A DNA stretch of 12,662 bases, taken from Opitutales bacterium. Its GTDB lineage: Bacteria > Verrucomicrobiota > Verrucomicrobiia > Opitutales > UBA9783. Numbering within the stretch: the stretch's first letter is position 1; each line of letters opens with the position of its first letter. The notes below the pieces were generated by a model that was not told the origin of the DNA, made no database searches, and worked only from the letters and a program-made list of their open reading frames with translations. The DNA is taken from positions 1 to 12,662 of the forward strand of contig JAKSVZ010000018.1 in assembly GCA_024407725.1 (NCBI GenBank). Direction: 5' to 3'. This document shows positions 5,426 to 12,662 of the stretch, piece by piece. The position numbers and the translations under genes were made by a program.

Positions 5426-6280
5426 TTAGAAGGTTCTTCCTACGCCCAAATAGATTTGGTCGGAATGCATGGTGCCGAAGGGGAGGCTATGGTCATAAAG
5501 CTTTGAATCTGATGCTTGATGCAAGCCGATATGGCGGTAACCGACTTCAAATAAGGTTTCGAATTTCTCTGCGCGTACAAATAGGGTCATGCTGTACAAC
5601 AACGAACCGGCATGGACATACTTAGAAGCATGTGAAAAATAACACTGACTATTAGCTACCATAGCTCCTCCCTGTAGATAATCAAACCACTGAATCACGT
5701 TAAATTTGGTGCAGATATATGCACCACCAATTCCGCCACCAATACCGATGGATAGGTAATCGAGTAAATACTGCTCCCAATAGACATTGAGCTGAGCACC
5801 GGCAATGCGTTGATTCTTAAAATAATGGCATCGATGATGGCGCAACCAACAATTATTGGCGTCAAATCGAAAAACATCGACGATAATATCTGGAGCAGGT
5901 AGTATTATTTCTTCAACATTCGATGTAGGACGATGGGAATCTTTCCCTTTTAGATAAGCTCCTAGTAGTTCAACTTCAATCCCTACGGCGCCGAGGTCAA
6001 AAATATCAAATCTTCTTCCTAAAGCCACCGATCCGTTATAAGAATGATCATATTGGAATTTGCCCTGTAGACAATCGGGGGTATTGCGATATAAATCAAA
6101 AGTAATACGATGACTGTCTTGAACAAGATAGGGTTCCGTCCATTCTTCATAGGGGATAACCTCTCCTTTAAAATCTCCGAAACCGGAGCGTACCATTACG
6201 TAACCCAAACAGGGCGTGCTTATTCCTAACCCTAGGCTTAAGGTGCCTAAAACCATCCATTTGTGAATTTTGGTTCCCAT
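5426..6280 (-). CDS. Predicted outer-membrane beta-barrel protein, paralog A (uncharacterised family)
   Basis: Start re-called at ATG 6280 (MGTKIHKWMVLGTLSLGLGISTPCLG...), preceded by the SD AAGGAAG. It has a hydrophobic signal peptide, a Gly-rich GIGGGIGGAY block and a terminal ...IYLGVGRTF with C-terminal Phe, a BAM beta-signal-like feature. It is clearly paralogous to 11631-12575. Function is inferred from sequence features only. Confidence 0.75.
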   Translation of the reverse strand: MGTKIHKWMVLGTLSLGLGISTPCLGYVMVRSGFGDFKGEVIPYEEWTEPYLVQDSHRITFDLYRNTPDCLQGKFQYDHSYNGSVALGRRFDIFDLGAVGIEVELLGAYLKGKDSHRPTSNVEEIILPAPDIIVDVFRFDANNCWLRHHRCHYFKNQRIAGAQLNVYWEQYLLDYLSIGIGGGIGGAYICTKFNVIQWFDYLQGGAMVANSQCYFSHASKYVHAGSLLYSMTLFVRAEKFETLFEVGYRHIGLHQASDSKLYDHSLPFGTMHSDQIYLGVGRTF

Positions 6281-6295
6281 ATCTTCCTTGACTTT

Positions 6296-6355
6296 GGGAT
6301 CCTTCTTGCGGGGGATCCTTCTTGCGGGGGATCCTTCTTGCGGGGGATCCTTCTT
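6296..6355. repeat. Perfect tandem direct repeat, 16-bp unit GGGATCCTTCTTGCGG x 3.75 (gene-sense CCGCAAGAAGGATCCC)
   Basis: Read directly: units at 6296-6311, 6312-6327 and 6328-6343, plus a partial 6344-6355, with no mismatches. The array ends 15 nt upstream of the paralog A start codon. Confidence 0.97.
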
Positions 6356-6362
6356 AGAAGAA

Positions 6363-6391
6363 ATTGTGAGTGCAGTTTTTATACTTTGCAA
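6363..6391 (-). promoter_or_regulatory. Weak candidate promoter for OMP paralog A
   Basis: On the minus strand: TTGCAA (6391-6386), a 17-nt spacer, then CACAAT (6368-6363). The predicted TSS at about 6356 is the distal edge of the tandem repeat, which would put the whole array in the 5' UTR. The -10 is weak (4/6). Confidence 0.25.
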
Positions 6392-6407
6392 GCTTTTTTT
6401 ACTTTTT

Positions 6408-6436
6408 TTGAAAAGGTACTGTTTATGCTTTATAAT
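6408..6436 (+). promoter_or_regulatory. Candidate sigma70-type promoter for glgP
   Basis: TTGAAA (6408-6413), a 17-nt spacer, then a consensus TATAAT (6431-6436), 20 nt upstream of the glgP ATG. An A/T-rich tract lies immediately upstream (6391-6407). Confidence 0.5.
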
Positions 6437-6456
6437 AATAGAGAACCTCGACTCCT

Positions 6457-9249: not shown

Positions 9250-9744
9250 ATGCAATTAGCCTCTTATGTAAAAGGAGCAAGGGTTATGGATATAGGCTGT
9301 AGTTTTGGTTTTTTAAGTATTGAGCTTGCGCGTTTTGCCGAATCTATAACAGGGTTTGATATCAATCCTTATTGTATCAGAATTGCGGATATAGTTGCGC
9401 ATTACCTACAGGTGAACAACACGCGTTTTTTGCCTATAACGTTTGAAGATTACCAGGAACAGGCTGAGTATGATGTTGTGCTATCTTTGGCGAACCATCA
9501 TACGTTTGACCAAAATACTCATCAATCATTACAAAGTTATTTTCAAAAGTGTGCGACTTATTTAAAACCTGGTGGATTGTTATTATTTGAGTCTCATGCA
9601 GTTTGCTATGAAACCCCTGAACAATTAGAAAAGGTTATTCAGGTTATAGCGCAATTTTTTGACATACGTGAGCGGCGAGTGCTGAACAAAGGTAATCGTG
9701 TCTCAGATAGAGGCCGTACCTTTTGCGTATGTGTTAAGAAATAA
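9250..9744 (+). CDS. Class I SAM-dependent methyltransferase (core; possibly N-terminally truncated or a pseudogene)
   Basis: Motif I VMDIGCSFGFL lies 13 aa after the ATG, followed by an acidic post-I residue (FD) and LKPGGLLLFE (motif IV-like). No SD precedes 9250. The same frame is open upstream to 8902 apart from one TGA at 9094 (see findings). Confidence 0.6.
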   Translation: MQLASYVKGARVMDIGCSFGFLSIELARFAESITGFDINPYCIRIADIVAHYLQVNNTRFLPITFEDYQEQAEYDVVLSLANHHTFDQNTHQSLQSYFQKCATYLKPGGLLLFESHAVCYETPEQLEKVIQVIAQFFDIRERRVLNKGNRVSDRGRTFCVCVKK

Positions 9745-11630: not shown

Positions 11631-12575
11631 TTAGAACGTCCGTCCTACGCCCAAATAGATTTGGTCGGAATGCATGTTAGCGAGTTTATCGATCGTCATA
11701 CCATACATTTTGTTGTCAAACATCTGGTGCAGCCCGATATGGCGATAACCAACTTCAAATAATGTATCAAATTTCTCTGCCCGTAAAAAGAGCATGAAGT
11801 TATACAACAACGCTCCGGTATGGGCATACTTGCGATTTTGATTAGGCTTTAAACCACCGCCCCACCAAACGTAGTGTCGACGGAATATATTAACGATTAC
11901 AGAATCCAACACTTCCCATTTTTCCAAGGTTGAAAATTTGGTGCAAACATAAGCTCCGCCAATTCCTCCCCCGATACCAGCAGATAACCAATCCAAAAGG
12001 TACTGTTCCCAATAGATGTTGGTTTGTGCACCCACGATCCGTTGATTTTTTAGGTACATCGGAATAATATGAGCCATATGCACGTTGTTTACATCCTTAT
12101 ATTGTACCATAAGGAAATCTGGGCGTGGTAGATTCACATGATCCATATGATCGTGATGATCTTGTCCAGTACCTTCTACTAACCTAATCTCAACCAGTTC
12201 TCGGTTTTTGCTATCATAACGCGCATAAGCCCCTAGGATTTCTAGCTCGATTCCTAAAGCCCCTGTATCAAATACGTCGAAGCGTCGGCCTAAGGCTACC
12301 GATAGATTGTGATGATCTTTGTAATCAAAGCGTCCCTTGGTACACGTACCATCACGTACGAGGGTAGTAGCGTTATTCCACTCAAGGTTAGCATCAGCCA
12401 AAACACCCCACGCATTGGCCGTCCAGCTTGGCAAGGTTCCCTGCTGTTTATTTTGGCTAATATCGTCTGCTTTTAATTCGCCAAAGCCACTACGTACCAT
12501 GACGTAACCGTAACAGGGGGTTGTTATTCCTAAACTTAGGCTTAAGGCGCCTAATGCCATCCATCTATGGATCAT
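11631..12575 (-). CDS. Predicted outer-membrane beta-barrel protein, paralog B (uncharacterised family)
   Basis: 314-aa ORF with ATG 12575 preceded by the SD AGGAAGG. Signal peptide MIHRWMALGALSLSLGITTPCYG. It shares these blocks with paralog A: GYVMVRSGFG, SVALGRRFD.FD.GA.GIE.E.LGAY, KNQRI.GAQ.N.YWEQYLLD.LS.GIGGGIGGAY.CTKF, RAEKF.TLFEVGYRHIGLHQ and MHSDQIYLGVGRTF (C-terminal Phe). Confidence 0.8.
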   Translation of the reverse strand: MIHRWMALGALSLSLGITTPCYGYVMVRSGFGELKADDISQNKQQGTLPSWTANAWGVLADANLEWNNATTLVRDGTCTKGRFDYKDHHNLSVALGRRFDVFDTGALGIELEILGAYARYDSKNRELVEIRLVEGTGQDHHDHMDHVNLPRPDFLMVQYKDVNNVHMAHIIPMYLKNQRIVGAQTNIYWEQYLLDWLSAGIGGGIGGAYVCTKFSTLEKWEVLDSVIVNIFRRHYVWWGGGLKPNQNRKYAHTGALLYNFMLFLRAEKFDTLFEVGYRHIGLHQMFDNKMYGMTIDKLANMHSDQIYLGVGRTF

Positions 12576-12593
12576 GTTCCCTTCCTTTTTATC

Positions 12594-12662
12594 GGGAACC
12601 CTTATTGCGGGAACCCTTATTGCGGGAACCCTTATTGCGGGAACCCTTATTGCGGGAACCCT
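12594..12662. repeat. Perfect tandem direct repeat, 15-bp unit GGGAACCCTTATTGC x at least 4.6, truncated by the window end (gene-sense GCAATAAGGGTTCCC)
   Basis: Read directly: units at 12594-12608, 12609-12623, 12624-12638 and 12639-12653, plus a partial 12654-12662 running off the window. The array starts 18 nt upstream of the paralog B start codon. Confidence 0.97.

Follow-up and report, generated by a model that had tools for sequence, protein, structure and literature searches.

What does a tandem array do when it stands directly in front of a surface-protein gene? The question is raised by the window studied here, a stretch of 12,662 bp that is the whole of one contig from a rumen-type Opitutales metagenome-assembled genome (MAG; locus tags MJ218_xxxxx). 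The window ends inside a perfect 15-bp array placed just 5' of a gene for a predicted outer-membrane (OM) β-barrel, called paralog B, and a second gene of the same family in the window, paralog A, is preceded by a 16-bp array. Our results showed that such arrays are non-coding, that their units differ between paralogs and that closely related strains carry different numbers of copies at one and the same locus. The explanation that we favour, with slightly more confidence than doubt and by analogy with known systems, is that they are hypervariable non-coding leader minisatellites which act as a contingency-type expression dial for surface-barrel genes.

Leader arrays of the window and data compared

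Sequence inspection, a pattern search and Tandem Repeats Finder (TRF) placed array B at 12593..12662 on the minus strand, with at least 4.7 perfect copies of the 15-bp unit GCAATAAGGGTTCCC (transcribed strand); TRF gave a 15-bp period, 4.7 copies, 100% matches and a score of 140. A preliminary description of this DNA had counted at least 4.6 perfect 15-bp copies running past position 12662 from 18 nt upstream of the B ATG, and this was reproduced: the array ends at 12593 and is followed by a unique 17-nt leader, ATAAAAAGGAAGGGAAC (12592..12576, minus strand), and by the ATG at 12575 of paralog B (MJ218_03625; 11631..12575, minus strand), an open reading frame (ORF) of 314 amino acids. This leader contains the Shine-Dalgarno (SD)-like sequence AGGAAGGG (12586..12579, minus strand), and its last bases, GGGAAC (positions -6..-1, directly before the AUG), are complementary to the GUUCCC of every B unit. 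The array is cut by the end of the contig and not just by the edge of the window.

Array A (6296..6355, minus strand) consists, by TRF and by inspection of the sequence, of 3.8 perfect copies (100% matches) of the 16-bp unit GCAAGAAGGATCCCCC. It is followed by the unique leader AAAGTCAAGGAAGAT (6281..6295, minus strand), which carries the SD-like AAGGAAG, and by the ORF of paralog A (MJ218_03600; 5426..6280, minus strand; 284 amino acids). According to TRF, both family genes of the window carry a leader array and no other gene of the window does. The sequence GCAANAAGGNTNCCC, with up to two mismatches, was found at 11 sites when 1.2 were expected, a number reached in 0 of 200 shuffles, and eight of the 11 matches were located inside arrays A and B.

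The loci used for comparison (L numbers below) came from the GTDB representative UBA3869, from ENA and Logan assemblies and from array-containing NCBI records limited to coding sequences (CDSs); at least some of the samples with family loci originated from cow rumen (PRJEB21624; 10.1101/162578). TRF was applied to ~240 kb of related DNA from the clade, and perfect arrays of at least two copies with a score of at least 64 were considered. The homolog scan of genome contigs reached one species only, UBA3869, and that of metagenome contigs four short loci only. An exact look-up of paralog B returned only a CDS-length NCBI record and gave no upstream extension for the strain of the window. The orthologous B upstream region was reached through the syntenic ffh gene, and the promoter and array found there are those of related strains, not of the window strain. 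Literature on the lineage yielded nothing for UBA3869, and nothing was found in a preprint on rumen-ciliate symbionts.

Arrays across the gene family

All perfect arrays in the ~240 kb stood directly upstream of genes of the family; elsewhere there were none. Besides the two of the window, at least 13 further perfect arrays were found 5' of homologs. The unit CTTATAAGGAAACGC was present in 4.8 copies in L013, 6.8 copies in L020 and at least 1.6 copies in L002, where the contig ends; CTTATAAGGAAACAC in 3.8 copies in L003, 4.8 in L025 and L027 and 2.8 in L026; CTTATAAGGAAAAGC in 2.8 copies in L023 and L024; TTTATAAGGAAACGC in 1.7 copies in L021 and L022; the 16-bp CTTTATAAGGAAATAA in 2.0 copies in L017 and L018; and AAAATA in 5.5 copies in L019. 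The units of the related genomes are CTTATAAGGAAAC(G/A)C, CTTTATAAGGAAATAA and AAAATA. Three more paralogs of the window MAG, MJ218_01355, MJ218_03920 and MJ218_02040, carried at least 3.8 copies of ATTAGTTTA, at least 4.5 copies of ACTTCTTACATAGGT and at least 3.5 copies of CTTATAAGGAAATGA, respectively, each up to a contig end, and with A and B this makes five distinct units before five paralogs of one MAG. Unit lengths across paralogs were 6, 9, 15 and 16 bp, units of 6 or 9 bp being restricted to two arrays. The 15- and 16-bp units of the window are outside the 1-9 bp range that is usual for the simple sequences of contingency loci, and the window tracts are of the minisatellite type, not classical simple sequence repeats (SSRs).

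Comparison of three genomes at the syntenic tsf-OMP-MFS locus (OMP, outer-membrane protein) showed (AAAATA)5.5, at least 3.8 copies of ATTAGTTTA, or a single CTTATAAGGAA. These unrelated units at one locus indicate independent origins of the arrays. The conserved feature is a tandem array at the leader position, not the sequence of the array, and conservation of the presence of arrays without that of their sequence points to a mechanism that depends on copy number or length, a hypermutable leader, rather than to a common bound factor.

The arrays are non-coding

In six complete loci (L013, L020, L021, L004, L017 and L019) an in-frame stop codon is located upstream of the array and no start codon lies between them. 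L013 and L021 are orthologues of B, and the possibility that had been held up against a non-coding reading in the preliminary description, an AIRVP repeat translated from an upstream in-frame start, is contradicted by these loci. The conserved signal peptide (M-x-K-R…) begins at the annotated ATG in ~60 homologs. The in-frame stops upstream of the arrays show that these are non-coding, and over-extended ORF calls such as (TSYIG)n, (TPYKE)n and (EMTYK)n are artefacts that the arrays cause in annotation. A call of the same kind is made in the window, where a mechanically called ORF (5426..6391) takes as its start the TTG within the -35-like TTGCAA and reads through array A, with a spurious N-terminal extension of 37 amino acids.

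Copy-number variation

An identical protein of 285 amino acids (P0024) was encoded in three samples, with near-identical flanks, behind 4.8, 2.8 and 4.8 copies. The fmt-linked orthologues of B carried 4.8 copies in L013, 1.7 copies in L021 and L022 and 2.8 copies in L023 and L024, while the window has at least 4.7; L021 and L022 were reached via the adjacent ffh, which encodes an Ffh 98% identical to that of L013. Independent assemblies of one variant were concordant (L017 with L018, L021 with L022, L023 with L024, and L025 with L027), a concordance that speaks against collapse during assembly. At a given locus, closely related strains differ in copy number. The expectation, already voiced in the preliminary description, that array lengths should differ between isolates was thus borne out at orthologous loci of related strains, not among isolates of the window genome. 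Copy differences, concordant assemblies, unrelated units at one locus and arrays at contig ends, where five of them terminate, are typical of actively slipping minisatellites.

Promoter-like box and position of the arrays

The sequence AAAAAGCTTGCAA was invariant in 10 of 10 aligned upstream regions of the family. It is followed by a spacer of 14-17 nt and then by CA(N)(A/G)AT, located 0-7 nt before the first unit. The promoter-like box of paralog A (6363..6400, minus strand) is composed of an A-tract (6400..6394), GC, the -35-like TTGCAA (6391..6386), a 17-nt spacer and the -10-like CACAAT (6368..6363); its predicted +1 is at ~6356/6355, and the first base of array A is at 6355. In many loci the last unit (…CTTATAAGGAA) adjoins the ATG, which leaves no space for a promoter downstream of the array. 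Read in this way, the arrays would form most or all of the 5' untranslated region (UTR), i.e. they would be transcribed. A promoter within the array was rejected by inspection, as the periodicity of the units cannot set -35- and -10-like hexamers at a spacing of 16-18 nt.

Other short repeats were seen next to the box. Directly 5' of the invariant AAGCTTGCAA box, a run of 6-11 cytosines is followed by 6-8 adenines (L003:2854-2870; L025:9883-9900; L017:9926-9941; L004:2929-2942). These homopolymer tracts differ between orthologues, C9A8 in L003 versus C11A7 in L025-27, and paralog A of the window has an A7 tract only (6394..6400); they could add another layer of simple-sequence variation. Several family genes (L003, L017 and L025) have tRNA-like 3' ends (…GGTTCGAATCC…GCCA) directly in front of their promoter box.

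Origin of the units and RNA folding

The unit of MJ218_02040 is CTTATAAGGAA-ATGA, a full copy of the leader with its start codon. Other unit types have ACGC, ACAC or AAGC at the position of ATGA, and the upstream units of MJ218_03920 have ATA instead of ATG. By their sequence, the arrays look like tandem duplicates of the translation-initiation region in which the upstream starts are usually disabled, and descent of the units from such a duplicated region would be why the SD-like AAGG is found in 7 of 10 unit types. An SD-like 4-mer was present 5-12 nt before the start codon in only 10 of 61 non-family genes of the clade, and the lineage appears to be poor in SD sequences, with highly expressed genes (groES, groEL, rpsB and the OMP family) as the exception. 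The A and B units hold AAGG(A/G) with no start codon at SD distance, and only the unique leader adjacent to the ATG qualifies as an SD site; the units of MJ218_02040, in which AAGGAA-ATG is kept, are the exception. A ribosome-related role of A- and B-type units is possible. In MJ218_02040 (L030:1-60), every CTTATAAGGAAATGA unit keeps an in-frame ATG after AAGGAA and the NCBI partial CDS runs through the array; initiation at several of these units could give (MTYKE)n extensions of the signal peptide.

Arrays of the CCUUAUAAGG type, found in related genomes, have a unit sequence that is a perfect 10-nt palindrome. They were the only arrays with significant self-pairing and folded far better than shuffled sequences (z = -5 to -8.5; unit-shuffle p = 0.002-0.014), and with ViennaRNA the predicted opening energy of the initiation region alternated between ~5 and ~11-13 kcal/mol with each added unit. 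The units of L016, L014 and L019 folded no better than shuffled units. No parity effect was predicted for B, whose opening energy was 9.3-9.9 kcal/mol with 1-12 full units and 10.9 kcal/mol with none, and the opening energy of the B initiation region was at the 88th percentile of 59 background genes. The sole specific feature of B was a predicted 6-bp stem in which GUUCCC from the last unit pairs with GGGAAC (-6..-1). The predicted accessibility state flips with the assumed transcription start site (TSS). No match at the gathering score of Rfam 15 was found in the whole window. An RNA-hairpin or parity model, attractive for CCUUAUAAGG units, was rejected as a family-wide or window-level account, as A, B, L016, L014 and L019 fold like shuffles and B shows no parity effect.

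The outer-membrane barrel family and its genomic context

The A and B proteins are true paralogs (47% identity, E=2e-85), and both have an N-terminal signal peptide and a C-terminus ending in YLGVGRTF. Searches of Pfam, NCBIfam and PDB sequences gave no match for either protein. An AlphaFold2 model of B, built on an alignment of 39 sequences, was a confident β-barrel (pLDDT 85.4, pTM 0.78), and its Foldseek neighbours were OM barrels only, all of them weak (Legionella porin III, OmpA, FadL, Ail and OmpX). On the basis of the signal peptide, the C-terminal F, this model and its structural neighbours, the family products are predicted to be surface-exposed outer-membrane β-barrels. The family comprised 68 matches at 90% clustering, with at least 15 paralogs in the window MAG alone, and in a profile search of 1.84 billion representatives no more than 15 clusters at 50% identity were found; the family is an orphan, restricted to its lineage.

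The fmt-linked OMP (11631-12575 in the window, compared with L002, L013 and L023) had only 52-72% identity from one genome to another. Where the OMP is ~71% identical, in L002 and L013, the products of the flanking fmt, kdsA and glgP genes were 88-98% identical (Fmt 92% in L002 and 88% in L013, at the amino acid level; KdsA 90% and GlgP 98% in L002). The fmt-linked OMP is a fast-evolving, predicted surface protein. The 5' cassette (the first 75 nt, encoding the signal peptide) was more conserved between paralogs than the remainder of the gene, e.g. 93% versus 74%. In Mycoplasma hyorhinis, the vlp genes likewise share a conserved 5' cassette, which contains the promoter and the signal peptide.

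L023 and L024 are collinear with the whole window (HD, rluB, folD, RDD, DEAD, pntA, glgP, kdsA, fmt, OMP), and paralog A with its array (5426-6455 of the window) is absent from these otherwise syntenic loci. An ORF of 164 amino acids resembling S-adenosylmethionine-dependent methyltransferases (9250..9744, local GC 0.39; segment 8893-9806 of the window) is also absent from both, and the two segments look like lineage-specific insertions or losses. Within the CDS of paralog A, TRF also reported a 12-bp, two-copy match (5724-5747). It encodes the invariant GIGGGIGG barrel motif, found at the equivalent position in all homologs; this repeat is coding and is unrelated to the leader arrays.

Explanations for the arrays

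The mechanism that we favour can be set out as follows. Each array would be a promoter-proximal part of the 5' leader of an OM β-barrel gene and a member of a minisatellite class common to the family, which would have originated by tandem duplication of the initiation region (SD-like AAGG, with or without the start codon). Whole units would be gained and lost by slipped-strand mispairing or unequal recombination, and the number of units would alter the length of the leader, its structure or its capacity to bind the 30S subunit. The expression of each paralog would then be set independently, in a heritable but reversible manner, and this rheostat would diversify the surface-protein repertoire of the population. 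For copy B a translational effect is the most likely route, because each unit has an SD-like AAGGG and a GUUCCC complementary to the GGGAAC before the AUG.

Several observations weigh against this mechanism. When compared with the sigma-70 consensus, the promoter-like box reaches 8/12, too low a score for the consensus scan, in which only the divergent glgP promoter was found, and the assignment of the box as a putative promoter rests on its conservation. The promoter of array B and its full copy number lie beyond the end of the contig. L004 has a single copy, and no array was found in the more distant members L005/L009, L007 and L028. For the RNAs of the window arrays, folding did not exceed that of arrays of shuffled units (A, p=0.29; B, p=0.32), and no specific RNA structure is supported by this comparison. 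Units of 15-16 bp should also slip less than SSRs of 1-7 bp, and switching could be slow, operating at the level of strains and not as true phase variation. The effect on expression itself is deduced from the position of the arrays and from analogy.

A bolder version, which we regard as conceivable and rather improbable, is that the arrays are start-codon-less copies of the gene's own ribosome-binding region whose number digitally encodes translation, in a slippage-driven combinatorial switch of the porin repertoire. Neighbouring units of the CCUUAUAAGG type would pair with each other, and each unit gained or lost would turn an odd/even switch on or off. The A- and B-type units would serve as decoy or standby 30S sites, or as partners that mask the ribosome-binding site (RBS; GUUCCC with GGGAAC). 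Such a system would be phase variation at the level of translation, by duplication of the initiation region, in non-pathogenic, SD-poor Verrucomicrobiota with at least 15 paralogs per genome.

The rival explanations of the leader minisatellites are, in the order in which they survive, a neutral by-product, a binding-site array, a coding repeat and an assembly artefact. In the first, which we hold to be unlikely, the leader would be a hotspot of slippage or duplication, perhaps because of strong transcription, and copy number would drift with no consequence for expression. The lack of conservation of the unit sequence between paralogs and the existence of paralogs with no array speak in its favour. 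It does not, however, account for the restriction of the arrays to one gene family over ~240 kb, nor for the repeated appearance of unrelated units at exactly the same position in orthologous loci, and it is unlikely that 15 to 100 nt inserted ahead of the start codon and behind the promoter, often with SD-like or strongly self-pairing sequence, would be silent.

A little less probable still is an array of binding sites, whose units would be bound by a repressor or activator, an RNA-binding regulator or the 30S subunit (at AAGG), and which would act as an operator, a decoy or a standby platform. The GCAA.AAGG.T.CCC sequence common to A and B, the AAGG of most unit types in a lineage in which SD-like 4-mers are rare in other genes, and the perfect 10-bp palindrome CCTTATAAGG, as expected for a dimeric DNA-binding protein, are in its favour. 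However, two of the five units of the window MAG lack AAGG, no single factor could recognise all five, (AAAATA)n and (ATTAGTTTA)n have neither an SD-like nor a palindromic core, and the AAGG can be explained by descent from a duplicated initiation region. A common DNA- or RNA-binding factor was rejected on the ground that units differ within one genome, as was an operator- or iteron-type array for one regulator, no recognition sequence being common to the five. The function at the level of nucleic acid proposed in the preliminary description therefore stands in so far as the array is non-coding and probably regulatory, while its conserved core does not hold as a binding site since it is common to A and B only.

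It is very improbable that the array is coding, i.e. that it encodes an N-terminal (AIRVP)n of protein B from a start codon beyond the end of the contig. No visible unit interrupts the frame of the B ATG, each unit of MJ218_02040 has retained an in-frame ATG, and the NCBI partial CDSs of two paralogs run through arrays. An open frame is, however, expected by chance (~0.79 per 5-codon unit), the visible array contains no start codon, 16-bp units shift the frame with each copy, and the signal peptide, which must be N-terminal, starts at the annotated Met; the upstream stops described above complete the case. The preliminary description had argued against coding from unit length, an argument that fails for B (15 is divisible by 3, and nothing closes the ATG frame within the visible array), and its non-coding conclusion is upheld by the stops instead. 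That the repeat is spurious and was made by the assembler can be practically dismissed, even though array B stands right at the end of a contig in a short-read MAG, as internal and fully flanked arrays are present in the window (A) and in independent assemblies from different assemblers, and assemblers can be expected to break contigs at repeats.

Comparison with known systems

The closest parallel to the leader minisatellites is the (ATCTTTC)n tract of hmw1A and hmw2A in Haemophilus influenzae, a 7-bp repeat that is transcribed in the 5' UTR and whose copy number sets the level of the adhesin (PMC12721329; PMC8262952). In both systems a tandem array is located between the promoter, putative in our loci, and the start codon of a surface-protein gene, and each paralog has its own tract. 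Copy number varies between strains here, while the hmw tract varies both between and within strains. The units differ in length (7 bp in hmw, 15-16 bp in the window and 6-16 bp across the family), and in our family they also differ between paralogs and appear to be derived from the initiation region. The hmw tract requires RNase III and a partner G-rich arm, and no such arm is evident here; a long hairpin with a complementary arm was not found for the window arrays, which fold like shuffled units. The effect of copy number on expression is established for hmw, whereas we infer it here from position and analogy.

In Moraxella catarrhalis, the AGAT(n) and G(n) tracts upstream of uspA2 and uspA1, respectively, give graded expression (high, mid or low) and not an on/off switch (PMC7302503). 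Repeat number upstream of OM protein ORFs is again the common element, and the proteins are also variable, antigenically so in M. catarrhalis. The uspA units are, however, a tetranucleotide and a homopolymer, and the tracts are located 29-132 bp upstream. M. catarrhalis is a pathogen under immune selection, whereas the bacterium studied here is a rumen commensal or possible symbiont.

Promoter SSRs are responsible for phase variation of Neisseria meningitidis nadA (TAAA) and porA (polyG), H. influenzae hifA/B (TA) and M. hyorhinis vlp (polyA) (reviewed in PMC3899988). They share with the leader arrays the contingency logic applied to surface-protein families, and the polyC/polyA tracts beside the -35-like box at several of our loci resemble them. 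Promoter SSRs act by changing the -35/-10 spacing or the number of transcription factor sites upstream of the TSS, whereas the arrays described here are downstream of the -10-like hexamer. TAACTGA direct repeats located just upstream of start codons in Beggiatoaceae, Cyanobacteria and Bacteroidetes, for which a post-transcriptional role was proposed (PMC4679880), are likewise short direct repeats a few nucleotides from start codons in genomes with few canonical RBSs. In that case one heptamer precedes 169 unrelated genes, which suggests a common binder, whereas here many units precede the genes of one family.

Variation of surface proteins driven by repeats is textbook knowledge for a few pathogens; among Verrucomicrobiota, and among commensals or possible symbionts of the rumen, there are essentially no descriptions of it. 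Should expression be set by copy number, the arrays would provide a cheap and reversible diversification of the cell surface, perhaps under pressure from phages, protozoal grazing or the host. The arrays also explain why assemblies break at these genes in this lineage, and they mislead gene callers into annotating N-termini made of repeat peptides. The differences from the known systems are the long units of 15-16 bp, the diversity of units between paralogs, the apparent origin of these units in the initiation region, and the phylum and habitat in which they are found.

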